Of a DNA stretch of 56,682 nt, positions 5,263 through 33,750 are shown in pieces; position 1 is the first letter of the stretch; every line of letters starts with the position of its first letter. Position numbers and translations under genes: made by a program. Source of the DNA: a virus (taxonomy: Duplodnaviria > Caudoviricetes); IMG/VR virus record IMGVR_UViG_3300022929_000030, positions 1 through 56,682 of that record. One strand, written 5' to 3'. Below the pieces are notes generated by a model that was not told the origin of the DNA, did no database searches, and was given only the letters and a program-made list of their open reading frames with translations.

Positions 5263-5645
5263 GCCCGCGACACCGATCCTTTGGTGTGCTTACGGCGATT
5301 AGCCATCACCTTTCCGCAGCCCCGGGCCACTACAGCGCCGTTTTTAGACGACCCGTTATACGGGCGTTTGGGCTTTGTAGAGCGTATTTCTCCCCCCGTA
5401 GCAGCATACGTTACTTCGGCTGCTTTTGTGTTTTTTACGTTGGTTTTGCCCTTTTTACCTTCGCGCTTCTTTTTTGCAGCAGTAGATTTACGCTGGCTTT
5501 TTGACAAAGAACGGGCTTTGGCTATGGGCAAACACCTGTCCGGGTTTTTCTTGTCTTCAGACGTCCCGCATTCTCCCGCAATATTGCCGGAGCTATCAAT
5601 CCTAACCCATTTTTGCTTTCGCCATTTAGCTAGTTCGCCGCCCAC
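5259..5645 (-). CDS. Small basic conserved phage protein (DUF5872-like)
   Basis: Probable GTG start at 5645 (GGELAKWRKQKWV...RCLP...). The ORF track extends it upstream over another gene. Confidence 0.6.
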   Translation of the reverse strand: MGGELAKWRKQKWVRIDSSGNIAGECGTSEDKKNPDRCLPIAKARSLSKSQRKSTAAKKKREGKKGKTNVKNTKAAEVTYAATGGEIRSTKPKRPYNGSSKNGAVVARGCGKVMANRRKHTKGSVSRA

Positions 5646-5826
5646 TGCTCTTTCCTTTTGATTTTTTCGCGTAGTTGGGGTCTTTGCAGTATTTGGACGC
5701 CGCCATATTTGCATATGCTGACGGGTATGTATCAAACGTTCTTTCGGCCCACGCTTTTCCAGCAGGACAAATTTTACTGCCCTTACTTTTTTTGGAAGCG
5801 CCTTTAGATTTTTTCGAATATGCCAT
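5626..5826 (-). CDS. Small basic protein (YPSAYA motif)
   Basis: MAYSKKSKG...ICPAGKAWA...YPSAYANMAASKYCK; internal ATG at 5826 of track ORF 5626-6066. Confidence 0.65.
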   Translation of the reverse strand: MAYSKKSKGASKKSKGSKICPAGKAWAERTFDTYPSAYANMAASKYCKDPNYAKKSKGKSSGRRTS

Positions 5827-5845
5827 TATAAAAGCTTCCCTGCTA

Positions 5846-6130
5846 TCACCACGCCTTACAGGACCAGTATCTGGCCGAAAATTTGTCTTTTGCCGTGTCA
5901 CAATTGTGTCGGGCACGAAAGTTTTTACGTCTTCCCGGCTGGTCTTTCTTGATAGACATATTAGAGTCCCCAAACCGAACCAATTTAACTTCAGAGCCTT
6001 TTTTTGCCAAAACGGCACTTTTTTTGGCTTTTCCGGGAGTGCGCTTGGGTTTATTATATCCTGCAAATGTTTCTCCCCGGTATTTTAACCTTCCGGACGG
6101 CAGTCTTTCTACGTTTTTAGTTGTCGCCAT
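5846..6130 (-). CDS. Small basic conserved phage protein
   Basis: 94 aa, VRFGD...RRKNFRARHNC...SARYWSCKAW; GAGG RBS. Confidence 0.75.
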   Translation of the reverse strand: MATTKNVERLPSGRLKYRGETFAGYNKPKRTPGKAKKSAVLAKKGSEVKLVRFGDSNMSIKKDQPGRRKNFRARHNCDTAKDKFSARYWSCKAW

Positions 6131-6137
6131 AACACCC

Positions 6138-6413
6138 TCATTTGTAAAAAAACGTCATGCTAGTTACGTGGGTAAACGTTGCATGAATGTCTGTATTAAA
6201 CCTTACCCCCTCTTGAGGTATTGTCAGATCACCCGTCGAATTTGCATGAAAATCTAACGTAAATACAGTGGTTCCCGACGCGCCCCCATCACGCAAAACA
6301 ACGGACCCCGTAGAACCCGCGGAATGGTAATGAATTGCATTAAGCCGGGCCGGACCACTTACTACCGTACCCGTAGCGGTAAGATACTTTGCTTTTAAAT
6401 CCGATCCGGCCAT
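6138..6413 (-). CDS. Small virion protein, paralog 1 (possible decoration protein)
   Basis: 91 aa MAGSDLK...; aligns by eye with 6422-6694. Confidence 0.7.
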   Translation of the reverse strand: MAGSDLKAKYLTATGTVVSGPARLNAIHYHSAGSTGSVVLRDGGASGTTVFTLDFHANSTGDLTIPQEGVRFNTDIHATFTHVTSMTFFYK

Positions 6414-13778: not shown

Positions 13779-16226
13779 TTATCTCCGTTGCTGCTGTTGC
13801 GCTTGCAAGCGTAGTATCTCACGTTCCGCACTTGCTTGCAATTTTTGGTTAGCCATACGCTCTTGTTGTTGCATACGTTGCTGGAATTCTTGCGATCTGT
13901 TCTGCGCTTTCTGCTGGTCAAGCTGCAATTCGGCTTGATCGTTGGCAATGTCCGCTTGAACTTGCTGTTGCTTGATCTGCATCTCTTGTTCTTTGAGCGC
14001 AACCAACGGATCCGGGCCTTCCTGACCCTCGCCCGCAATCTGCGCAGAAAGCTGCTTTACATTCTGCATTTCCGTAGCAACTTGCTGTGCAATCAACTTT
14101 TCCAACTGTTGCTGTATTTCGGGCGTCAAGTTTTGCGCATTTAACTGCTGCGCATACTGTGCCTGAACCGTTTCCTGCGCCTTAATCTTAGCATGTTCCA
14201 TAATGTGCTTTTGCAAAGCTACTGCCACCGCCGGCTGTTGGGAGGCAATGGGAGAAGACCCGAAGACCAAATGCGCCATAACATGCGCCTCGTGATCCTG
14301 ACCCGCAAACGCACGCAACTCCACTTGATCCAACGCGTCAATGTTTTCGGTTGCCGGATCTTTGGGCTGAGCCTCCTGTGCAGGCTTCGGTTTAAGAATT
14401 TTATCCACATCCCGAACACCCAACGCCTGATACATGCGCCGATACGCCTCGTGCATGTCATGCAATTCTGGAGCCTGCATTGCCAGCTGCATTTGAGTCT
14501 GTGCTAAAGCAATACGTTGCGCCTGACTAAAAATATTTGGATCCGAAACAGGAACAATGTCTATACGATCATCAAAATCCTTGGCCATAACCTCTTGGTC
14601 GCCACCCGCAACCGAAAACGGATACCGTTGCGGCAAGCTTTCAGACATTACACGCGCCAAAAGCTTAAATTCGTTCTTCATAGCATAGTGCAAACGCTTA
14701 TGAACGGCGCTCATTACCCGCGCACCCTGCTCCAACATAGCTACCGTTGTACCAACCGCAGCCTGTTGATTGCCGTCGCCAACCTTCATGTCCGTAATAG
14801 TGGCAAAACGTTGTCCCGCCTGAACCACAAAACCCAATAACTGGAACAATGTAGAGTCCGGGCCCTTGAACGGAAGGGGCATCAAACTGTCCCGTATGGC
14901 CCCTCCGGGACTGTCTACGTCCCTAAACTCGCCCGGCTGTAATGGCTCTGCATCTTCCCTAATCCGCAGCCCACGGGCTTTAAAGCCGGCAGGAAGATTA
15001 GACAATGTGCCCGCGTCAATAAGCTGCCGCAACGCCGCCGTGGCAGTGCGAGACAAGCCGCCAATAGTGTGAATAAGCCCCAAACCATAAAAGCCAAAGC
15101 CCGGAAGAAACTTATAATGCACAAAATACTGTATTTTGCGCCGATTTTCATCATCTTCAGAATAATTCCGGCGAATAGATAGAATTTGACCCACATCCTC
15201 GGCCACCGTGACAATATACGGCACCATAATGCCCGTGGGCTCCCCTTCTTCGTCCATATCCTCAAAGCCCGGAAGCTCCAAATCTACGTGGAATTCCAAC
15301 AAAGTAACGTCATAATCAATGTTTGAAGGCCGCATACCGTCAATATTATCTACAGTATCCGTCGTATCTGTCGCAGGAGCCTGCGAAGGATGTACCGGAA
15401 TATCCCGGTAAAACCCGTTTAATTGCATCTTGCGCAGGTTATTCCACTGCATTCTAACGATCTGAGCCGCAAAAGGCGTCGTTTCCATGTCCGCAGCGTC
15501 ATAAGGCACCACCAAATGCTCCGCAGGAACAAATTTACTGACTACCCGGTCTAATGTACCGTCAAAATACACCTTCTTAAACGTCGATCCCGCCAACGGA
15601 AGGTAAAACAACATCTGATCCGTGTCCGGAGTGTACTCCTCCATCACATTGGTCAGATAATAATTCATAAATTCCTTAACGCGCTTAGATTGAGCCTCTT
15701 TTTCCTGCGTTAATTCACCCATAATCTGCGTTCTTACCGGCCCCTCGGCCGGCAAAAGCTCATTAAACGCTTGCGCTTGAAATTGTGTGGCCGCCTCTGC
15801 AAGCAATGGGTGTGTTACACCCGTCGCCCCACGAAAAGGTTGTGTTCTTTCCTCGTATTTAAAGCCTAAAAGCTCCAAACCCTTGTTATACTCGTCTTCC
15901 CAATCCCCGCGGCTTTCTCTAGCCGACTCATATTGCGATAAAAGGTCCGAAGCTATGCCGCCAAGGTCGGAATCAGACAAATCTTCCGCCAAATTAGAGA
16001 AAAAATCACCCCCGCCAACAACTTTTGACGCCTCCGGGTCAAAATCAACCACTACACCGCCGTCTTCAGCGTCAATAATGTCAATTCCATCCGCATAAGG
16101 CTGCGAAGAAGACACCAAAGCACCCGGCATCTCTATCTCAATGTCCGTAATTGCCTCTTCAAGCGCCGGGTCGCTGTTTTCACGCTCCACAAACGACGCA
16201 ACAGGGTTTCTGGGTGGTAATGCCAT
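13779..16226 (-). CDS. Portal protein
   Basis: 815 aa, GVTHPLLAEAATQFQAQA...LPLAGSTFKKVY...FYGLGLIH...LRQLIDAGTLSNLPAGFKARG, with a long C-terminal Q-rich coil (P22-like barrel). Confidence 0.88.
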   Translation of the reverse strand: MALPPRNPVASFVERENSDPALEEAITDIEIEMPGALVSSSQPYADGIDIIDAEDGGVVVDFDPEASKVVGGGDFFSNLAEDLSDSDLGGIASDLLSQYESARESRGDWEDEYNKGLELLGFKYEERTQPFRGATGVTHPLLAEAATQFQAQAFNELLPAEGPVRTQIMGELTQEKEAQSKRVKEFMNYYLTNVMEEYTPDTDQMLFYLPLAGSTFKKVYFDGTLDRVVSKFVPAEHLVVPYDAADMETTPFAAQIVRMQWNNLRKMQLNGFYRDIPVHPSQAPATDTTDTVDNIDGMRPSNIDYDVTLLEFHVDLELPGFEDMDEEGEPTGIMVPYIVTVAEDVGQILSIRRNYSEDDENRRKIQYFVHYKFLPGFGFYGLGLIHTIGGLSRTATAALRQLIDAGTLSNLPAGFKARGLRIREDAEPLQPGEFRDVDSPGGAIRDSLMPLPFKGPDSTLFQLLGFVVQAGQRFATITDMKVGDGNQQAAVGTTVAMLEQGARVMSAVHKRLHYAMKNEFKLLARVMSESLPQRYPFSVAGGDQEVMAKDFDDRIDIVPVSDPNIFSQAQRIALAQTQMQLAMQAPELHDMHEAYRRMYQALGVRDVDKILKPKPAQEAQPKDPATENIDALDQVELRAFAGQDHEAHVMAHLVFGSSPIASQQPAVAVALQKHIMEHAKIKAQETVQAQYAQQLNAQNLTPEIQQQLEKLIAQQVATEMQNVKQLSAQIAGEGQEGPDPLVALKEQEMQIKQQQVQADIANDQAELQLDQQKAQNRSQEFQQRMQQQERMANQKLQASAEREILRLQAQQQQRR

Positions 16227-16275: not shown

Positions 16276-19050
16276 CTAGCGGAACATATTCCGGGCCGTC
16301 CCGTTTAAGCCCCCAATACCCGAAAGTGCATCCTGCGCCATGTTCTCAGGTGAATATTTCTCATACAAACTCTCCGCAGGAGGCACAACAACAGGCTGAC
16401 CCGTAACCTGATCTATCCTAACCTCCGCCGCACCCGTCGGAGTAGGTCGTGCCGTGGGCCGCGGACCCATTTCCGCGTATATCGGATTGACCCGCGCGGA
16501 CCCCGGACCACTATACATTACCATATCACTGCTGGCAGGCTCCAAAATCGTCTCCATAGCCGAAAATGACGCCGGAGACTGCTTAAACGCCGCCATTTCA
16601 CGCGGCTCATTCGGATTTACCCCCTGAACCGCCGCCACAACTTTAAGGGGATACCCCCTGTTTTCCTCACTAAGTGCAGACAACGGCTTGCCAGACGCTT
16701 TAAACTCCGCAAACTTGCCCGGACCAGCGTTATAGGCGCGTAAAGCATCCTCAGTCCGAGGAAACTTCTCCAACATCGCTTGCAAATACTGCGAACCCAA
16801 CTCAACATTAACTTCAGGTACAAACAACAATTGCCGTACCACCCTGTCACTCTTGTCATCAGTGTCATAACCAAGCCTTTCCGCAATCGTAAAAATATCT
16901 TCCACACCATAACCCGGCTTGCGGGCCGTGGAAGGACGTATCTGCATTAAACCTAACGCACCACTGCGCGTATTCTCCGCCTTCGGATCCCCCGAACTCT
17001 CCGCCATCACAACACCCTTAACAAGCGTTTGCAAAAAGTTCTTATCTACCTCACCACCATTTTTAAAGTTTTGAACCTGCGACGTATTTCGCTGAATAGT
17101 TTTGTTCCGCTCGTTAATTATATCCGCATATCGTTGCGCAGCCATTGCCTGTTCCGCAAACGTCGTAATGCCTTCCGGAGTGTTTTGCGGACCTTCGTTT
17201 AAATAGCGTTCTATTTCCGCACGGCCCTCTGTTTCCCTAAAAGCTTCCATAGACGTTGGAGACGGAGTAAATTTCTTGATGGATAAATCCGGACCAAAAG
17301 CTTGTTCTCCAGACATAGCGTTTTCGCGCACCGCATTTTGCATTAAAAGTAATCGCTCGGCAGGCGTTCTTGGCCGGCGCTCTTCGCGGTCAAAGGTAAA
17401 AAGAGGCGCATTAGGGTTGCTTAAAAAATACTGCGCACCACGGTTGATTGTTTCATCCTTTTCAAAACCCTCCGCAATTTTTTCATGCGCGTAACCAGAA
17501 TACTCAAAATCAGGATCGTTCACACGACGCTGACGGTCTTGCTGTTGGTCTAACTTATACAGTTCGAGAATTTTTAAATAATCTTCTTTAGATAAACCTA
17601 ACTTTTTTGCGGTAGGATACCCCTGTTCTACAATACGAAAAAGCCTTTCTAAACCACGATGCCGCATTTCATGCGCCGCAACTCCTTTTGAAGAATAATC
17701 TCCCGGACTAATTAATATCCTATCGTTGTTAGGGTTAAAATGAGAACCCTCCAACCTATTCTTTGAACGATCATACATCATGTCGTAATCAATTTTATTA
17801 ACGTCAAAACCCATTTTTGCCAACGGGTCCATATGCGGCTCTAAATCAGCGCGATACTCAATATCACCCAACGACGCATGGTCCACAACCCGACTAGCCG
17901 TGTCCACAACAGAACCACCATTGGCCATGTACTGCACATAACTGCCAATACCCCGCGGGCCGCGAGTCATGGCCCGCGCTGTCTCGTTTAAACTGCCAAT
18001 GCCAGACATAACTTCGCCGCCTTCTGCAAAACCGTCCGTTTTTCGGTAATAACCCTCGCGCATAGGAGTAATGTATTGTGGAAACTTCCTATCCGAAACT
18101 TCTCCTGTAGCAAAATCGCTAAACACAGTGCCGCCTCTGGACCGAATTTCTTCCGGCGTTTCTTTTGGTTTACGCAACCGCTGCTCTAAACCAAGCTCCG
18201 AAAAAGAATACGTTTGACCACTTTGAAGACCCCCAGTGTCTAATGTAGCCGGGCGCATCACTTCAATTCCGGCGGCCCGCGGTTTCGCTTTGGTCGTCAC
18301 CACAACAGGAACTTCGGGAATTCCTAACTCAATAGCCGCCTGTAACCGATGATGCCCCTCGCTAATACTTATTCCCCCGTCAGATAAAACTACTTCTACC
18401 TCAATGGGCTCTTTTATGCCTTCGTTAAAAATATTTTCTTTAAGGGTTTCCTGACCCGAAGCATCAAACTTTTCCTGCAAAAAAGGGTTTTCGCTAAGAT
18501 TCCCACTAGGTAAATCACCCCCAAACTTACCAACATCGTAGCGAGGAAAATTAAATTGAGCCACGTTGTCCGCAATGGTCTGCGTATCAACATACTCTAC
18601 CTTGGGGTTGTCAAAAGCCCGCTTTGGATGCGGTATTTTTTCCCGCTCCGCCGTTTCCAAAACCTGCTTGTTTATCTCGTTTGCACTCTTATTATCCGCT
18701 TTGCCCGAAAGAATAATACCGTCGATCTTTTCCGCAGGAATAATTTCAGATTTTCGCTTGTTTAAAAATTCCGATACAAAGTCCGGAGTCTTGCGAGCCA
18801 TCGTCTTAACCGCAGGACCAATCGCCGGCGCATAACCCAGCACCTCCGCTAAACTCATAAGACCCATTTGTAAATAATTAGGATCGTCCTGACGACCCTC
18901 CTGAACTATCTCCGATACCGCGTCCGCCGTACCAACAGGAGTAAAAGCTAACGCCTGATCCGCTACCCCAACACTCGCAGGCCGATCCTCGCGATAAGAC
19001 CCGTATAATGGATGAAACCGTTCAAAAAAACCTTCTGTATTAGCCATCAA
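16276..19050 (-). CDS. Multidomain internal virion protein: ParB-like domain, HExxH zincin-like domain, lytic transglycosylase (SLT)
   Basis: ParB/Srx-type motif GIKEPIEV...EGHHRLQAA...EVPVVV; HEMRH; SLT motifs AESSGDPKA...GALGLMQI...AYNAGPG. Confidence 0.8.
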   Translation of the reverse strand: MMANTEGFFERFHPLYGSYREDRPASVGVADQALAFTPVGTADAVSEIVQEGRQDDPNYLQMGLMSLAEVLGYAPAIGPAVKTMARKTPDFVSEFLNKRKSEIIPAEKIDGIILSGKADNKSANEINKQVLETAEREKIPHPKRAFDNPKVEYVDTQTIADNVAQFNFPRYDVGKFGGDLPSGNLSENPFLQEKFDASGQETLKENIFNEGIKEPIEVEVVLSDGGISISEGHHRLQAAIELGIPEVPVVVTTKAKPRAAGIEVMRPATLDTGGLQSGQTYSFSELGLEQRLRKPKETPEEIRSRGGTVFSDFATGEVSDRKFPQYITPMREGYYRKTDGFAEGGEVMSGIGSLNETARAMTRGPRGIGSYVQYMANGGSVVDTASRVVDHASLGDIEYRADLEPHMDPLAKMGFDVNKIDYDMMYDRSKNRLEGSHFNPNNDRILISPGDYSSKGVAAHEMRHRGLERLFRIVEQGYPTAKKLGLSKEDYLKILELYKLDQQQDRQRRVNDPDFEYSGYAHEKIAEGFEKDETINRGAQYFLSNPNAPLFTFDREERRPRTPAERLLLMQNAVRENAMSGEQAFGPDLSIKKFTPSPTSMEAFRETEGRAEIERYLNEGPQNTPEGITTFAEQAMAAQRYADIINERNKTIQRNTSQVQNFKNGGEVDKNFLQTLVKGVVMAESSGDPKAENTRSGALGLMQIRPSTARKPGYGVEDIFTIAERLGYDTDDKSDRVVRQLLFVPEVNVELGSQYLQAMLEKFPRTEDALRAYNAGPGKFAEFKASGKPLSALSEENRGYPLKVVAAVQGVNPNEPREMAAFKQSPASFSAMETILEPASSDMVMYSGPGSARVNPIYAEMGPRPTARPTPTGAAEVRIDQVTGQPVVVPPAESLYEKYSPENMAQDALSGIGGLNGTARNMFR

Positions 19051-20666
19051 ATAAACCTTTGATTAAACTGAAATAGCCCATAAGGATCCACAACAGGAGA
19101 AAATTGCTGCGAATTAAGTTGCGGTAAATTTAAACTCGGAAACATGTTCTGCTGCCCCGGAATACCAAACACTGCCTGCTGCGTCGGAGCATTCGCATAC
19201 ATGTTCTGTAACGCCATCAAACCCTCAGAAGGCAAATATTCCGTAGCCGCCGGCGCTCCAACAATACCCGGCTGACCAACCCCCTCTAAATCAAAATTCG
19301 TCGCACCACCGCCCGGCTGACCAACACTCAATGATTGCCAATCACCAACCGTAGACGGAACAATGTAATCCGGACCCGTATCAGGCCCCAACAACTGTAT
19401 CGTATCAGGAACCGTATTATACGTGTTGTTGGTCGTATTCGTCGTGTTTACAACACTGTTGTCAACAGTGCTACTAGACGTCGTGTTATCGTTAAAAATA
19501 TTCTCAACAACATTCGCCGCACCCGTAACCGCGTCGTTCACCACACCCGCAACACCCGTCGGCTCAATTCCAGACCCATAAGGCGTAGCACCAACCGCAT
19601 TACTTATACCACCCAATGCACCGCCAAATTCATCACCACTCGTACCCGCACCACCACCGTCAATCATATCGACCGTGGCAGGAACATAATTACCCGCATC
19701 GTCATAATACCCGTAACCACTCACCCCCGCTAAAAAACCCGGCTCGTCCGCACTGCCAAAAGGCGTCAACCCTATCGCATTAGAAACACCCCCCAACGCA
19801 CCGCCAAACTCGTCGCCACTCGCACCCGGACCACCACCGTCAATCATATCTATAATGCTCGTGTACCCCGTACTCTCCGAATCCGACGTCCCCGTACCCA
19901 AATCATCCGGCCGAGCCATAGGAGTAATCGAAGTCTCCGGCGCCAACGAACTACTCGTCTCCCCCGGCTGCGCCGTAGTCCCCGCACCCGTAATCGTATC
20001 TATCCCTCCAGCAAGCGCATTAACCAAAGCACCCGTAATACCACCAGAATTAATAAAACCAGCAACCCCCGTCGGCTCTATCCCACTGCCCAAAGGCGTA
20101 GCACCCAATCCCGTCGATATATCCGAAACAGGGCCCTCAAACGTATCCCCGCTCATGCCCGGACCACCGCCGTCAAGCATGTCCGTTACACTCGTATATG
20201 ACCCCGACTCATAATTCGTCGTCCCCGCCGCGTCAGACGCCGCATCCGCAGCACCCGCCGCCGTGTTCTCATAATCCGCATGACTCCCAGAATAAAACTC
20301 CGAACCACTGCCCCCAGCACCACCACCGTCAAACATATCCACAAGAGACGTATAACCCGTGTTGCTGCTCGTTTCCGCAGGCGCCGGCGCCGGGCTGCTG
20401 TCATCGTTATCGTCGTTTGACGAACTGTGCGAAACCGCCCCCGTGCCGCCACTCGCTACATAATCATCGTGGCTGCCCGAATAAAACGTGTCGCCAGAAC
20501 CCCCCGCCCCGCCGCCGTCAAACATATCCGCAAGAGACGTATAACCGCCGCCACCACTGTCACTAGACCCCGAATCGCTATTAGATGACCCGCTAGTGCC
20601 GCCACCACTGCAAAACACCGGCTTTTTATAAAAACCCCAACCCAAAAGCGCGTTAAACGTGTTCAT
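19047..20666 (-). CDS. Gly/Ser/Asp-rich repeat protein (probable virion / ejection protein)
   Basis: 539 aa with five DM(F/L/I)DGGG(A/P)G-x-SG-x-x-F repeats; N-terminus ends in PVFC-SGGG. Confidence 0.75.
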   Translation of the reverse strand: MNTFNALLGWGFYKKPVFCSGGGTSGSSNSDSGSSDSGGGGYTSLADMFDGGGAGGSGDTFYSGSHDDYVASGGTGAVSHSSSNDDNDDSSPAPAPAETSSNTGYTSLVDMFDGGGAGGSGSEFYSGSHADYENTAAGAADAASDAAGTTNYESGSYTSVTDMLDGGGPGMSGDTFEGPVSDISTGLGATPLGSGIEPTGVAGFINSGGITGALVNALAGGIDTITGAGTTAQPGETSSSLAPETSITPMARPDDLGTGTSDSESTGYTSIIDMIDGGGPGASGDEFGGALGGVSNAIGLTPFGSADEPGFLAGVSGYGYYDDAGNYVPATVDMIDGGGAGTSGDEFGGALGGISNAVGATPYGSGIEPTGVAGVVNDAVTGAANVVENIFNDNTTSSSTVDNSVVNTTNTTNNTYNTVPDTIQLLGPDTGPDYIVPSTVGDWQSLSVGQPGGGATNFDLEGVGQPGIVGAPAATEYLPSEGLMALQNMYANAPTQQAVFGIPGQQNMFPSLNLPQLNSQQFSPVVDPYGLFQFNQRFI

Positions 20667-21133
20667 ATCCTTGCCCTCACCGTATAACCAAAAGGCGTAA
20701 GACCCAGCTTAGCCCAAAGTTTTGCCGTGCGTTCCGCAGATATCCCCGCATTAGCACCCCCAACAATCTCACGGGCACCCACCGTATGCGCCCAATTAAT
20801 AAATCGCTTCATTAAACGTGGCCCCATTATACCGCCACGAAAGGATTTATCCACATATATCAGTTTTTCTCGCGCTTGGCGAGTGTCGTTAAATACCATC
20901 GTCCCATACTCACCAAGTATTAAACCAACAATACGCCCATCAACTACCGCAACATCCGCTATCGTCTCCGGCTGGTTTACAACAAAACCATACATCGTCC
21001 GCATCATCTTCCGCTTGTCATAAACAAAAGCAGGATCATCCCCCCAAACCGTCTCCGAATGCATCCGATTAATTAAATCACCCAACTCCGATAAATCCTC
21101 TGTCCGCGCGCCGCGGTAAACCGTCCTACCCAT
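20663..21133 (-). CDS. GNAT-family acetyltransferase
   Basis: Probable start 21133 (MGRTVYRGARTEDL); motif A IYVDKSFRGGIMGPRLM, then KLWAKLG. Confidence 0.8.
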   Translation of the reverse strand: MGRTVYRGARTEDLSELGDLINRMHSETVWGDDPAFVYDKRKMMRTMYGFVVNQPETIADVAVVDGRIVGLILGEYGTMVFNDTRQAREKLIYVDKSFRGGIMGPRLMKRFINWAHTVGAREIVGGANAGISAERTAKLWAKLGLTPFGYTVRARI

Positions 21134-21524
21134 TGTTAGGATACCACCCGTTCCGCGGCCCACGGTGGGACCATACCCGTTTTTCATCCGGAAACATCTC
21201 CTTGCAAAACTTCCGAACATCCCGCGAAATACGCCTAACATCCGTCGAACCACCCGGCGCAATCATATCTATTATAACCAACCTCTCCCCACCACGACGC
21301 GCAAAAACCTCCCAACCAGACCATTGCCGCGTCTCAAACTCCTGAACCGTCATCCAACCCCACGTAATAAACCCACGTACACGGCCCAAATCATCATACC
21401 AAATCTTGTACTGATTATTCATAAATGCCGGAATTAACCGCCAATGTATCGTCTCCGCACTCTGCTGCGCATAAGGCGCCGTCGTCGTCCATAAACCTAA
21501 ACAATCCATAAACCCCTTATCCAT
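21126..21524 (-). CDS. RTX toxin-activating acyltransferase (HlyC-like)
   Basis: Start 21524 overlaps the terL stop. LIPAFMNNQY...GFITWGW...GGERLVIIDMIAPGG follows the HlyC/TAAT pattern (LPAI...WA...SGxRxWxIDxIAPFG). Confidence 0.7.
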   Translation of the reverse strand: MDKGFMDCLGLWTTTAPYAQQSAETIHWRLIPAFMNNQYKIWYDDLGRVRGFITWGWMTVQEFETRQWSGWEVFARRGGERLVIIDMIAPGGSTDVRRISRDVRKFCKEMFPDEKRVWSHRGPRNGWYPNNG

Positions 21525-22971
21525 AGTAACTGCGTGGTTCCAAATAGGCATCCTCTCCCTCCCAATCATCCGTTGGCAATTGTACAAAATTACCCTGCCG
21601 ATAACGCATCAATGCCTGCGTCGTGCTATCAACAAAGTCATCAAACTCCCCGTTAGGAAATGCAGCGCACTCCTCAATAACCTCATGCGCCCACTGATGA
21701 TCCGGAGCCCAAACCATCCCAGCCTCAAACAATGGCGCAATACTATGCGCCCGACTAATCTTGTCATTCCCACGACTAGGTGTGAAATTTACAACAGGTA
21801 TCCCCATGTTCCGTAACTCATGCGTCAAAGGCATACCCGTCGCCTTCGCCTCAATAATCACCGTCTCCGGATCCCAAAACTCAAACTGCTCATACGCAAC
21901 ACGCTTTAACTCCGGAAAATCCCAACGACCCTTTTGAGCATCCAATAACATCAATGCCGGAGGACCACCCTCGTCTATCTGAAAAACACCCCAAGTCGTT
22001 ATCGCACTGTAATCCGCAGTCTCCTTCTTACTAAACGCCGTGTCATAAGATTGAATAACATACTGCAATGCAGGAATACTCTCCTTCTCCCATATCTTCC
22101 ACCAATCCCGGCGCAAAATACTGTTCTCATCCCCCGTCGGATCCTGCTGATATTGCGCATTCCACTTGGCAGGAGGAATAGACGCCTTCACCCGCTCTAA
22201 ATCATCAAAAGACCAATACTCCGGCCAACAAGACTTGCCACTCGGCATAATCGCCGGCAACTCCACAACCTCCCATTGATCCGCCTTGTCATCCCGAGCC
22301 TGCGACCTAATCAATTGACCCGTCAAATCTTTCTCATGCCAACGCGTCATAACACAAACTATCGCACCACCCGGCTGTAAACGCTGCCTCGGACCACCCG
22401 TGTACCAATCCCAAGCATCATCAAAACCATTACTCGACATCAAAGTCTGCTCAGAATGTGGATCGTCAATAATAATTAAATCACCACCACGACCCGCTAA
22501 ATTCGACCCCACACCAACAGCATAATACATCCCACCACGCTCCGTGTCCCACCGACCAGATGCCTTGGAATCCGACGCCAACCGCGTGTCAAAAAGCTCC
22601 TGATAATCCTCCCGCTCCAAAAGGTTCTTAACCTTCCGACCAAAACCAACCGCAAGCTCCGTGGTGTGCGTAGCCTGAATAATCTTCATCGCAGGGTTCT
22701 TCCCAATCATCCAAGCAGGAAACAAAAAGGACGCAAACTCCGACTTCGTATGACGCGGCGGCATATTAACAATCAATCTCTTTAAACTACCGTCCGCGAT
22801 CCGCTGAAGCTTGTCCGCAATGATCTTATGGTGGTTTCCCGCAATAAACTCCGGCCACATTAATTTTACAAAAGTCAAGAAATCTTGATGCGCTTTCTCC
22901 GTGCGCTCTATCTGAGCGAGACGATACTGAAGCTTTAACAACCTATCGTTGTTATGGTCTGGATCAATCAT
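21517..22971 (-). CDS. terL: Terminase large subunit
   Basis: Walker A-like MPPRHTKS, Walker B IIIDDP, coupling motif MTRW, nuclease SYDTA...DDFVDS. Confidence 0.93.
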   Translation of the reverse strand: MIDPDHNNDRLLKLQYRLAQIERTEKAHQDFLTFVKLMWPEFIAGNHHKIIADKLQRIADGSLKRLIVNMPPRHTKSEFASFLFPAWMIGKNPAMKIIQATHTTELAVGFGRKVKNLLEREDYQELFDTRLASDSKASGRWDTERGGMYYAVGVGSNLAGRGGDLIIIDDPHSEQTLMSSNGFDDAWDWYTGGPRQRLQPGGAIVCVMTRWHEKDLTGQLIRSQARDDKADQWEVVELPAIMPSGKSCWPEYWSFDDLERVKASIPPAKWNAQYQQDPTGDENSILRRDWWKIWEKESIPALQYVIQSYDTAFSKKETADYSAITTWGVFQIDEGGPPALMLLDAQKGRWDFPELKRVAYEQFEFWDPETVIIEAKATGMPLTHELRNMGIPVVNFTPSRGNDKISRAHSIAPLFEAGMVWAPDHQWAHEVIEECAAFPNGEFDDFVDSTTQALMRYRQGNFVQLPTDDWEGEDAYLEPRSYYG

Positions 22972-31365: not shown

Positions 31366-31516
31366 GTTGAAGTGGTTACGTCGTCAGGTTGATACTTTAG
31401 ATCAGGAGCGTTTTCGTGAGGATGCGCGGCCCAACATCCAGCGCGAGTTATTCACTGCGCGCGAGGAGTTGGACCAATTTGTGCGCGGCTTGCGCGTGAA
31501 TGGTTATTTAATTTAG
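31316..31516 (+). CDS. Hypothetical protein
   Basis: 66 aa, AGGAGG RBS; converges on the graspetide-like operon. Confidence 0.7.
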   Translation: MDDQKERKALTTFQQAELKWLRRQVDTLDQERFREDARPNIQRELFTAREELDQFVRGLRVNGYLI

Positions 31517-32979
31517 AACAGCGCGGTTCTATTACCGCCGCCTCCGCCCCCGGCTGCGGCACCTAGCAGCGATCCGAATGGTGATGCGCCGCCTGTTCCG
31601 GCTGGTGCGGGTTGGGCTTGCATTTGTTGCCCGTTTGGAGATGCGTTTTGCATATCAAACATTTGTTGATTTTGTGCGTTTTGTCGGTTTTGCATACCAA
31701 ACAATTGGTCTTGGGGGCCAAAGCCTCCCCCGCCGCCTTTACCGCCCGGTTGCTGGTACGGTTGTTGATATGGTTGTTGATATGGTTGCTGCGGCATGAA
31801 CGGCTGCGGCTGGAAGCCTCCCCCGCCACCTTTACCTCCTCCGCCAAATCCACCGCCATATGGCTGTGGTTGGTACATGGGCCGCGGCTGGTAAGGCTGT
31901 TGGTATGGTTGTGGTTGAAAGCCGCCGCCAAACCCGCCTCCATAACCGCCAAATCCGCCGCCCATGAATGGGTTAGGCGGTCTTTGGTACGCGGGGGGTT
32001 GTTGGAAGCCGCCACCGCCTTTTCCATTACCGCCGGGGAGGGGCATTGGTGGCCGCGGTTGTGGTTGCGGGAATAATCCGGGTGGCGGGAATAATCCGGG
32101 TGGGTGCATGTCGGGAGGCGTTGGTTGGCCGGGAAATCCGGGCTGGCCTTCTTCTTCGCCCATGGCTTGGGTTGTGACTCCGCCCATTGGGGGTGGGAGT
32201 TGACCGGGGGGTCCGCCCGTTTCCTCGCCCATAGCCATGGTTGTGAGTTGCCCTTGGCCCGGTCCGTCGGGTGGAAAAGCGACGCTGTCGCCTCCGCCGG
32301 GAAACGGGTTTTCCCCGGTTTCTTCGCCTACGGCCATGGTTGTGGCTATGGCGCCTCCGAAGTTTCCATCTTCTCCTATGGCTCGGGTAAAGGCATTAGG
32401 GTTATTTGGCTGCAACATAGAATTGTCTTCGCCTATGGCCCGCGTGTTGGCTACTCCGGCGCCGGGTAATTCAACTAATGGTGCTGGCGTTTGATTGTTT
32501 TCAAACCCCAATGCTGCGCGTGTTATTTGGTTTTGTGGTAACATAAAATTTCCTCCGTCTGGCACGGGTTGGGCGGTAAGGGGGTTTGCCTGCCCTAGTT
32601 GTGCTTGCGTTACGCCAGCCGGTGGGGCGGGAACAACCCCTCCGGCATTGGCTTGCTGGTATTGCTGGTTAAAGTTGTTAATGAATTCGTTATCGGTTTC
32701 TAACCCTGTTTTATGACGAAGGAGCGGGGTAACGTCTCCCATACTTATTTCACCGTCTTGGTTTACATCAAACCGTAAGTCTTGTTCCGTGTTTCCAACG
32801 ATCATTTGCAATAAATTTTCGGCGTTAAGCGGGTTTGCTACGCCATATAATTCGTCGTTAGTAAAAGCCATATTGTTTGCACCGGGCCCGGTAAGAGGCC
32901 CGTTTGGCCCTGTTCCAGCAAAACCCCCGGTTTCCTCGCCTACGGCCATGGTTGTGGCCATCCCGAATAAATTTTCCAT
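31513..32979 (-). CDS. Putative graspetide precursor-like protein: 4x TTxxxxEE cores, dockerin-like motif, Q/P/G-rich tail
   Basis: TTMAVGEE (twice), TTMAMGEE, TTQAMGEE, plus two TRAIGED variants; DVNQDGEISMGD Ca-binding-type motif; 9 nt downstream of an ATP-grasp gene. Confidence 0.75.
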   Translation of the reverse strand: MENLFGMATTMAVGEETGGFAGTGPNGPLTGPGANNMAFTNDELYGVANPLNAENLLQMIVGNTEQDLRFDVNQDGEISMGDVTPLLRHKTGLETDNEFINNFNQQYQQANAGGVVPAPPAGVTQAQLGQANPLTAQPVPDGGNFMLPQNQITRAALGFENNQTPAPLVELPGAGVANTRAIGEDNSMLQPNNPNAFTRAIGEDGNFGGAIATTMAVGEETGENPFPGGGDSVAFPPDGPGQGQLTTMAMGEETGGPPGQLPPPMGGVTTQAMGEEEGQPGFPGQPTPPDMHPPGLFPPPGLFPQPQPRPPMPLPGGNGKGGGGFQQPPAYQRPPNPFMGGGFGGYGGGFGGGFQPQPYQQPYQPRPMYQPQPYGGGFGGGGKGGGGGFQPQPFMPQQPYQQPYQQPYQQPGGKGGGGGFGPQDQLFGMQNRQNAQNQQMFDMQNASPNGQQMQAQPAPAGTGGASPFGSLLGAAAGGGGGGNRTALF

Positions 32980-32988
32980 GCCGCACCC

Positions 32989-33750
32989 TTATTTAAGGTT
33001 AGCGCGCAAGCTTTCTGCTAATTTGCCCGCAACCACGTTATTAAACGCCGCAAACATGGGGTTGGAATTAATCTCTAAAAACCACGTTTTGTTGCCATCA
33101 TCTATAAAGTCGGCGGCGCCAAACGTAAGATTTATCTTGCCCATAAGTTTACGCACTTGCGGGACTATAGCATGATCTATTTTAGAAACAAAGAGGGATG
33201 GGTTAGGGTCGTCCCGGTAGTCGAGATGCGTGGACGCCAGCCCGAAGACAAAGATATCGTCGCCAATAACAAAGAGGCGCTTATTAAGGCCGTCTATGCG
33301 CTGTTGCAGAATGACGGGGTAATCGGCCCGTGAGCCGTGGGCGGCGTGCGCTCCACCGGTAATGGGTTTTATTATGGTATCTGGCCGTCCTGTTTCTATT
33401 CCGGCTTCTGTATCGGGGACATGTAGTCCGCATTGTTTGGCTAGGACAAGGTTTTTTAGTTTATATGGTGTTTCTTGCTCGTAATTAGGATTGTATTGTT
33501 TTATGTTTGGGTGCGCGCGAACGTAGTTTGATATCAGATACGCGTTGGCATACATTGTCCAATTGTTTTCTGCGAAGACGTTTGCGCGCCCGAAGCTTGC
33601 ATTAAAATTAATTTCATGGCCGTCCACTGTTAGTGTGTCGGTAGTTATGTCCCAGTGTAAGTTTTGGGATTGGTCTACGAACAGATCAAAGTGGCTGCGC
33701 AGCGCGGCAATATTGGGGTCGGACATTTGCCCAAAGAGTAAAGCGGTCAT
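32989..33750 (-). CDS. ATP-grasp ligase (RimK superfamily, graspetide synthetase-like)
   Basis: K...AKQCGLHVPDT, IIKPITGG, ILQQRIDG, RLFVIG, LDYR, FGAADF, FLEINSNP. Confidence 0.88.
   Translation of the reverse strand: MTALLFGQMSDPNIAALRSHFDLFVDQSQNLHWDITTDTLTVDGHEINFNASFGRANVFAENNWTMYANAYLISNYVRAHPNIKQYNPNYEQETPYKLKNLVLAKQCGLHVPDTEAGIETGRPDTIIKPITGGAHAAHGSRADYPVILQQRIDGLNKRLFVIGDDIFVFGLASTHLDYRDDPNPSLFVSKIDHAIVPQVRKLMGKINLTFGAADFIDDGNKTWFLEINSNPMFAAFNNVVAGKLAESLRANLK

Follow-up and report, generated by a model that had tools for sequence, protein, structure and literature searches.

A viral HlyC-like acyltransferase gene pairs with genes for leader-bearing, glycine-rich structural proteins, suggesting an enzyme–substrate module in marine tailed phages

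The DNA analysed here, referred to as the window, is the whole 56,682-nt IMG/VR virus record IMGVR_UViG_3300022929_000030 (Duplodnaviria; Caudoviricetes). It represents the nearly complete genome of a marine podophage of the HTVC023P type; its gene for the terminase large subunit (terL) is about 65% identical in nucleotide sequence to that of Pelagibacter phage HTVC027P, and PHROG matches identify GroES, DNA polymerase, helicase, primase, the small terminase subunit (terS), the major head protein and the portal. In an overlapping run of minus-strand genes, terL is followed by a gene for an enzyme resembling HlyC, a toxin-activating acyltransferase (TAAT), a gene for a GNAT-family acyltransferase, a gene for a 539-aa glycine-rich and aspartate-rich protein, a gene for a lytic transglycosylase (SLT) protein and the portal gene. 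Comparison across viral loci suggests that the TAAT-like enzyme and a protein carrying a short N-terminal leader form a conserved enzyme–substrate pair. The three overlapping genes that a first-pass annotation of this DNA had placed between terL and the SLT-bearing protein are recovered in the minus-strand map of open reading frames (ORFs), and the run reads as follows.

21517–22971, minus strand: terL, terminase large subunit, which opens the tightly coupled run (phrog_38, E = 1.5e-103; Pfam Terminase_6C).
21126–21551, minus strand (153-aa ORF at 21126–21587): HlyC/TAAT-fold acyltransferase, Tyr variant, 141 aa (PF02794, ApxC profile, AlphaFold2 (AF2) model with Foldseek).
20663–21133, minus strand (199-aa ORF at 20663–21262): GNAT acyl/acetyltransferase, 156 aa (PF00583, phrog_1249).
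20598–20666, minus strand: leader and junction of the 539-aa protein, residues 1–23, MNTFNALLGWGFYKKPVFC-SGGG.
19047–20666, minus strand: 539-aa Gly/Asp-rich, nearly Lys-free candidate substrate (composition, repeats, gene position).
16276–19047, minus strand (924-aa ORF at 16276–19050): SLT protein with a ParB_N-like segment, a probable ejection protein.
13779–16226, minus strand: portal protein (phrog_1216, E = 1.2e-52).

The overlaps are 35 nt between terL and the TAAT-like gene and 8 nt between the TAAT-like and GNAT genes; the GNAT stop and the start of the 539-aa gene share ATGA, and the stop of the 539-aa gene overlaps the ATG of the SLT gene (TGATG). The acyltransferase start, formerly put at 21524, most likely lies at the ATG at 21551 (MPIWNH..., 141 aa), because a strong Shine–Dalgarno-like run, GGGAGGGAGAGG, precedes this ATG and the homologues are 140–143 aa long. 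The GNAT most likely starts at the ATG at 21133, giving 156 aa as in its homologues; an alternative upstream ATG at 21187 would give 174 aa.

The assignment of the first enzyme to the HlyC family, proposed in the first-pass annotation, is borne out by both sequence and fold. It matches the Pfam HlyC family PF02794 with 42.1 bits against a cut-off of 25 (E = 9.7e-11), and the same domain is present in 12 of 12 homologues. No PDB chain is matched by the enzyme sequence searched on its own, and a profile built from it and the 12 homologues matches ApxC (4whn) in the PDB at E = 3.5e-4. The profile alignment confirms the earlier reading of the HlyC S-x-x-H motif as TAPY: these residues fall on SPLH of ApxC, aligning Tyr with the catalytic His. 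The catalytic Asp is kept, with D107 in IIDMIAPGG aligned to FIDWIAPFG of ApxC, and Y39, D107, H141 and several Arg residues are invariant in a 13-sequence alignment of the close clade. For the AF2 model of the enzyme (pLDDT 80.5), the top three Foldseek matches are all 4whn chains (probability 1.0, E = 1.2e-5, TM 0.50–0.55) and the next are generic GNATs at E > 0.03. The ratio dN/dS of the gene against three relatives is 0.12–0.35. The window enzyme thus has the TAAT fold but is a non-canonical TAAT, with Tyr in place of His.

A wide search of 1.84 billion representatives found 135 clusters that match the enzyme. Over the 148 aligned stretches that these clusters provide, the His column holds Tyr in 73, His in 41, Phe in 5, Arg in 3, Gln in 2 and a gap in 24, and the catalytic Asp is retained in 114. 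Tyr is the commonest residue in this column, and the Tyr-type proteins thus make up a large branch instead of marking a one-off loss. Outside viruses, one match to the Tyr-type clade, on a 5.7-kb contig of a metagenome-assembled genome, was found among one genome each of 185,579 prokaryote species. Searching 50,697 phage records by tblastn with the window enzyme and the enzyme of locus L030 returned nothing convincing (best E 0.3, Xanthomonas phage Seregon); tblastn of phage records with a His-type representative finds the cultured roseophage CRP-235. In GNAT enzymes, Tyr is commonly the general acid, and by analogy the Tyr of the window enzyme could plausibly supply a proton to the leaving thiolate, as in many GNATs. 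In the TAATs treated in PMC8510554, CdiC H37A and ApxC H24A retain residual activity, and the catalytic Asp is thought to deprotonate the acceptor. Two unusual forms were also seen. In three loci (L224–L226), a Tyr-type variant has Asn at the catalytic Asp (VANMIAP), and a leader-bearing protein still comes next (..RRFFGSSDEGGGGGGG); and in a 393-aa representative, P0024, the TAAT-like domain lies C-terminal to a 260-residue acidic, Gly-rich extension, which could be a fusion or a miscalled gene.

The 539-aa protein contains exactly the residues reported earlier, with lysine only at K14 and K15 and cysteine only at C19. Glycine makes up 18.7% of the protein, which has arginines at R252 and R537 and five D-M-x-D-G-G-G-[AP]-G repeats, and no family was found for it in Pfam, PHROGs, NCBIfam or ESM Atlas. 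It is the only window ORF that matches the leader pattern described below and is by far the best candidate substrate. The longer form of its repeat, Y-T-S-x-x-D-M-x-D-G-G-G-[AP]-G, occurs five times in the window protein, seven times in the corresponding protein of locus L003 and once each in those of otherwise different phages (L042, L064 and L207). A complex predicted from alignments of the TAAT-like enzyme and of residues 1–45 of the 539-aa protein has a score of 0.00 and a mark of 0.32 and counts neither way.

The evidence for pairing comes from 80 TAAT loci, namely 79 Tyr-type loci from a profile scan of IMG/VR and the window; His-type representatives diverged too far in their alignments to be used in such scans. 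Fourteen of the 80 could not be assessed, six with the gene off the contig and eight with less than 100 nt downstream. In every one of the 66 assessable loci, the next structural gene encodes a leader-bearing, Gly-rich protein, so that synteny across related phages, a check named in the first-pass annotation, holds for enzyme and leader in 66 of 66. The leader-bearing gene follows the TAAT gene directly in 64 of these, often overlapping the enzyme's stop, and a GNAT gene lies between them in two (the window and L004). Clustering of their enzymes at 90, 70 and 60% identity divides the 66 loci into 30, 12 and 7 groups, respectively. At least two genome layouts are represented: terL is upstream in 14 loci and downstream in 24, and the other 28 loci do not include it. 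Eight further loci have distant Tyr-type enzymes, and the leader is found in seven of them.

The target proteins range from 133 to 2,222 aa, each beginning with a leader of 10–19 residues, then an aromatic residue, Gly-Gly and a polyglycine run (MYNILFSFLKPQIAFGGDSGGGGG and MKTLLDLLGINPLKPLIAYGGDESGGG are examples of this Gly type). The bodies behind the leader are unrelated to one another, with no Pfam family assigned to 15 of 16 and no PHROG to 17 of 19; one target has a LysM domain and long coiled coils. The leaders themselves share a consensus, given here for the 39 distinct Gly-type leaders, with the aromatic residue as position 0.

Position −5: Lys 13, Arg 9, others 17.
Position −4: Pro 31.
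Position −3: Gln 26.
Position −2: Ile or Val 35.
Position −1: Ala, Val or Cys 32.
Position 0: Phe 26, Tyr 12, Trp 1.
Position +1: Gly 39.
Position +2: Gly 38.

Two controls address the specificity of this association. First, a scan with the window terL kept 80 loci (73–97% identity), 78 of them new and 75 of these with at least 900 nt downstream. The leader was present in all four terL-selected loci with the enzyme and absent from 70 of the 71 without it, the lone pattern match being an NYYGGG repeat and not a leader. Both the enzyme and the leader are missing from HTVC027P and 023Pt_psg01, which are cultured relatives. Second, a DNA pattern for KPQIxFGG matched 34 places, 17 of which have polyglycine context and are true leaders; the enzyme lies just upstream in 15, the contig ends in one and the enzyme is lacking in one. 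The presence of the leader with the enzyme in 66 of 66 loci, and its absence from 70 of 71 loci without, agree with the earlier suggestion that the modification site lies at the extreme N terminus of the 539-aa protein.

The second enzyme of the window offers a further comparison. It is a GNAT (PF00583, 24.5 bits against a cut-off of 20.7; phrog_1249, E = 2.2e-21), and its model (pLDDT 78) leads in Foldseek to generic GNATs, including protein N-terminal acetyltransferases. There are 69 PDB matches at E ≤ 0.001 and, among the matches listed, all the top ones are GNATs; RimI-like 4jwp, NatC 7mx2 and Ard1 rank with or below phosphinothricin and YncA acetyltransferases. Its nearest solved structures include both small-molecule acetyltransferases and enzymes that acetylate protein N termini, so the substrate cannot be read from the fold. 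The family occurs in 11 other viral loci, none with a TAAT-like gene, and in all 11 the next structural gene either encodes a leader whose final residue, aromatic or Arg, is followed by Cys and polyglycine, or starts directly with M-C (MKTFNALLGWGFNKKPVFCGGGGG, MKTFNELCGLGWNKNKMIAYCGGG and MCNGSD, the last a leaderless start found in two loci). In two of the 11, L207 and L208, the structural gene sits behind a second, paralogous GNAT. In register, I-A-Y-C-G-G aligns with I-A-Y-G-G-G, so that Cys occupies the Gly position at +1. This residue is Gly in 64 of 64 TAAT-only loci and Cys in 11 of 11 GNAT-only loci, and the two loci with both enzymes carry Cys (F-C-S-G-G-G in the window, F-M-C-S-G-G-G-G in L004). 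Across viral contigs, leader type tracks enzyme type.

In this respect the 539-aa protein is, judged from its relatives, a mosaic. Residues 1–19 are 84% identical to the target leader of a GNAT-only locus (L200), to whose body the rest is barely similar, and residues 38–539 share 49–60% identity with the target of L003, a protein whose leader is of the Gly type and whose locus lacks a GNAT. The leader is therefore a module that moves together with the type of enzyme. The first half of the window leader (NTFNALLGWGFYKK) also resembles the N terminus of HTVC027P gp41 (L001, 7477–8928; ..INAAFNALKKGFKK..); that protein has no Cys/polyglycine junction and no enzyme, which hints at a separate role for this half of the leader.

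Which residue would accept the acyl group can be addressed by comparison of the leaders. The first-pass annotation had named the KK pair (K14 and K15) or a new N terminus created by cleavage near F-C. The first of these does not hold as a general rule: Lys is absent from 9 of the 39 distinct Gly-type leaders and from the leader of L004, the only other locus with the window architecture, so a leader Lys is not the universal acceptor, although it may still serve as one where present. In L003, the target is 646 aa long and its one Lys, K10, lies in the leader. The second site is the best fit to the comparative data. The junction is the only invariant feature of the leader, and leaderless versions begin exactly there, with M-G in CRP-235 or with M-C in GNAT loci; for these reasons our preferred acceptor is the Gly or Cys at +1, acylated after it has become N-terminal. 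The CRP-235 example comes from a cultured HMO-2011-type roseophage (L189, MZ892989, 5986–7885), in which gp30 is a His-type TAAT and is followed after 2 nt by the gene for a leaderless 491-aa protein that starts MGGGGGD, 8 nt after AAGGAG, a strong ribosome-binding site.

Taken as a whole, the region is, in our assessment, reasonably likely to be an acyltransferase–substrate module that directs acylation, through the leader, to the N-terminal region of a structural protein. In such a module, two small cytoplasmic acyl-transferring enzymes would be translated together with the 539-aa structural protein, whose first ~19 residues would serve as a portable leader ending at the junction (F-C-S-G-G-G), ahead of a flexible Gly-rich stretch. 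The enzymes would recognize the leader or the junction and acylate the protein there, most likely on the Gly or Cys just after the aromatic residue once it is N-terminal. The TAAT-like enzyme would draw on host acyl carrier protein (acyl-ACP) and the GNAT on acyl-CoA, and the Cys-type junction of the window could be modified by both. The acylated N terminus, on its polyglycine tether, would then anchor the protein in the host membrane or insert into it during genome ejection; a lipid on such a tether would suit this step. The fuller scenario, in which tailed phages belonging to some of the most abundant marine groups lipidate an internal or ejection protein by means of a leader that selects the enzyme and is then removed, with acylation of the new N-terminal Gly or Cys (possibly twice where there are two enzymes) and insertion of the lipid into the host envelope, is more tentative, and we regard it as possible rather than probable.

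Several observations weigh against this interpretation. The canonical catalytic His is absent, replaced by an invariant Tyr in the close viral clade. The window leader is of the GNAT-associated type, which makes the TAAT-like enzyme's own substrate in this genome uncertain; because this is the leader type that travels with the GNAT, the GNAT appears at least as likely as the HlyC-like enzyme to be the cognate enzyme in the window. Acylation of any of these proteins is something that we infer from comparison, and cleavage of the leader is suggested by the leaderless variants only, with no protease identified. Podophage internal and ejection proteins are usually encoded between terL and the portal region, and it is from gene position only that the 539-aa protein is probably one of them. 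Among His-type viral TAATs, a P0052-like group (eight loci, L190–L197) is followed by proteins that start M-[N/S/G]-[G/S]-D-S without polyglycine, so that the N-terminal Gly rule is not universal; several of these proteins have Asn at position 2 and would keep their Met. Finally, enzyme and leader each occur once without the other: L161 has a leader and no TAAT-like gene in any frame of its 13.2-kb contig, and L209, the eighth of the loci with distant Tyr-type enzymes, has a TAAT-like gene and no leader.

Two of these exceptions have features of their own. The targets in L190–L197 have acidic, Ser-rich N termini, which may be a third junction type. In L161, the leader-bearing product (5554–6222) is 222 aa long, begins with a leader of the canonical Gly type (MLNNLIKPQICFGGGGSGGGGGG) and adjoins a T7-like portal; a 131-aa GNAT-looking ORF 1.5 kb upstream was considered as a hidden TAAT or GNAT and rejected (hhalign probabilities 0.5% and 0.1%; no Pfam match).

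Other explanations have to be weighed against leader-directed acylation at the junction. The first is classical TAAT chemistry, in which a fatty acyl group from acyl-ACP would go to the ε-amine of a leader Lys (K14 or K15 in the window) and the leader would stay attached. Characterised TAATs do acylate internal Lys residues, as described in PMC8510554; at least one Lys occurs in 30 of the 39 leaders, Lys or Arg is frequent at position −5 (13 and 9 of 39), and the only lysines of both the window and L003 proteins lie in their leaders. However, the leaders that have no Lys do not fit this chemistry, and where there is a Lys its position varies from −4 to −17, with G+1 and G+2 far better conserved. 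We consider Lys acylation with a retained leader unlikely.

A second explanation makes the leader a signal for assembly, capsid targeting or proteolytic processing, with the enzymes acting elsewhere, on a host protein or a small molecule, and gene adjacency reflecting co-regulation. The resemblance of the N-terminal half of the leader to HTVC027P gp41, which has neither enzyme nor polyglycine, would fit such a role, as would the small-molecule acetyltransferases among the nearest structures of the GNAT. The pairing nevertheless holds across differing genome layouts and with target bodies that are unrelated, the residue at the junction changes according to enzyme family (64 Gly in TAAT-only and 11 Cys in GNAT-only loci), and the leader has been exchanged along with the GNAT, all of which make this explanation improbable. 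Least probable is that the Tyr-variant HlyC-like protein is catalytically dead and acts as a leader-binding chaperone or assembly factor, leaving the GNAT, where present, as the sole enzyme: the His is indeed replaced in every close-clade member and the Asp also in L224–L226, but Asp and several Arg residues are invariant in the close clade, Tyr is fixed rather than variable and is the commonest residue in the His column, His-to-Ala TAAT mutants keep residual activity (PMC8510554), and dN/dS is 0.12–0.35.

Known N-terminal signals and repeats were also compared with the leader and its protein. A Sec or lipoprotein signal peptide was rejected on the residue before the Cys, the charged residues and the existence of leaderless forms; in the window, C19 is preceded by P-V-F and has K14 and K15 nearby, and relatives have Arg or Tyr before the Cys or an M-C start. 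A double-glycine bacteriocin leader would have a hydrophobic and acidic spacing that the leader consensus does not match, and a prepilin-type leader has the wrong cleavage order. A reading of the repeats in the 539-aa protein as RTX nonapeptide repeats was rejected, as D-G-G-G-x-G-x-S-G does not fit the GGxGxD register.

A 488-aa protein with GK motifs, which the first-pass annotation offered as an alternative target, is set aside here; nothing ties it to the module, and it has no leader. This Gly/Pro/Gln-rich protein (31513–33750, minus strand) has three G-K-G-G-G-G sites and repeated T-T-M-A-x-G-E-E-T-G motifs. The protein beside it weakly resembles RimK-like ATP-grasp enzymes (phrog_2599, E = 9e-6), and this is presumably the first modification module of that annotation. 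Downstream of the 539-aa gene, the 924-aa SLT protein has its SLT domain (PF01464) at residues 670–782 (E = 2.8e-17) and matches ParB-like PHROGs at residues 184–255. It also has a repeated SGIG[SG]LN-x-TAR-x-M motif, with one internal copy and a second at its C terminus. In relatives such as L003, the shorter SLT proteins begin with this motif, and in several relatives the first post-terL gene does so too.

Set beside characterised systems, the module shares with TAATs such as HlyC, CyaC and ApxC and their RTX protoxins the PF02794 domain, the fold (ApxC 4whn as top match) and the catalytic Asp, as well as a small enzyme gene next to a gene for a large Gly/Asp-rich protein thought to be modified. 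It differs in that the His is an invariant Tyr and the partner is a protein of the phage structural module and not an RTX toxin; the phage has no type I secretion genes among the neighbours of the module (terL, GNAT, the 539-aa protein, the SLT protein and portal) and no RTX protoxin or CdiA as a neighbour, its recognition element is a short N-terminal leader with polyglycine, Lys is not conserved at the site and the clade is virus-restricted. A second parallel is CdiC, which lipidates class IV CdiA effectors (PMC8510554): it is a TAAT outside the RTX systems that lipidates a large delivered protein engaging the target-cell envelope, and there too the target Lys is not invariant among homologues. 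CdiC, however, has a His/Asp dyad and acts on an internal receptor-binding domain, whereas the phage site would be N-terminal and defined by the leader.

Bacterial lipoproteins, made by Lgt, LspA and Lnt, likewise have a Cys behind a short N-terminal segment, as in the window-type leader. The phage proteins differ in having Phe, Tyr, Arg or Met before the Cys, a misfit to the lipobox consensus, and in the charge near the Cys, the missing long hydrophobic core, the leaderless M-C forms and the dedicated cytoplasmic GNAT. N-myristoyltransferase, which has a GNAT fold, acylates the N-terminal Gly of internal capsid penetration proteins of non-enveloped animal viruses. These proteins, released at entry to act on the membrane, offer the closest functional analogy to N-terminal lipidation in the phage; the two systems are unrelated in sequence, the phage would rely on enzymes of its own, on a leader and on junctions with Gly or Cys, and acylation in the phage is predicted only.

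In full-text searches of the literature, neither the pairing nor acylation of a particle protein in a tailed phage was found to be described. The only mentions are the abbreviation 'HlyC, toxin-activating lysine-acyltransferase' in a figure legend of a pelagiphage preprint (10.1101/2019.12.14.876532) and the GenBank product name of the CRP-235 TAAT, 'putative toxin-activating lysine-acyltransferase'; a term search of the main text of the CRP-235 paper (PMC9038755) found no mention of the gene. The comparisons suggest that phages attach an acyl group to a particle protein, which, within the literature searched, is undescribed for tailed phages. The idea of lipidation itself is strengthened by a comparative signal that is strong and specific, with the KK pair probably not the acceptor.

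TAAT lipidation is known for RTX toxins and for one class of CdiA effectors. The pair described here is conserved across many uncultured marine phages, including relatives of the HTVC023P-type group, which the authors who described it rank as the most abundant marine viral group known (10.1101/2019.12.14.876532). Its short leader and one-residue Gly/Cys switch amount to a testable recognition code, and CRP-235, a cultured phage with a related His-type pair, is tractable for tests of N-terminal acylation. A portable tag and a small acyltransferase could also serve as a tool for protein lipidation. The targets are otherwise dark-matter proteins, and the leader may be the first handle on their role. 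If the proposal is true, these would be the first TAAT-fold enzymes to act on an α-amine or Cys rather than on Lys, and their substrates would parallel, in bacterial viruses, the myristoylated proteins that animal viruses use for penetration.

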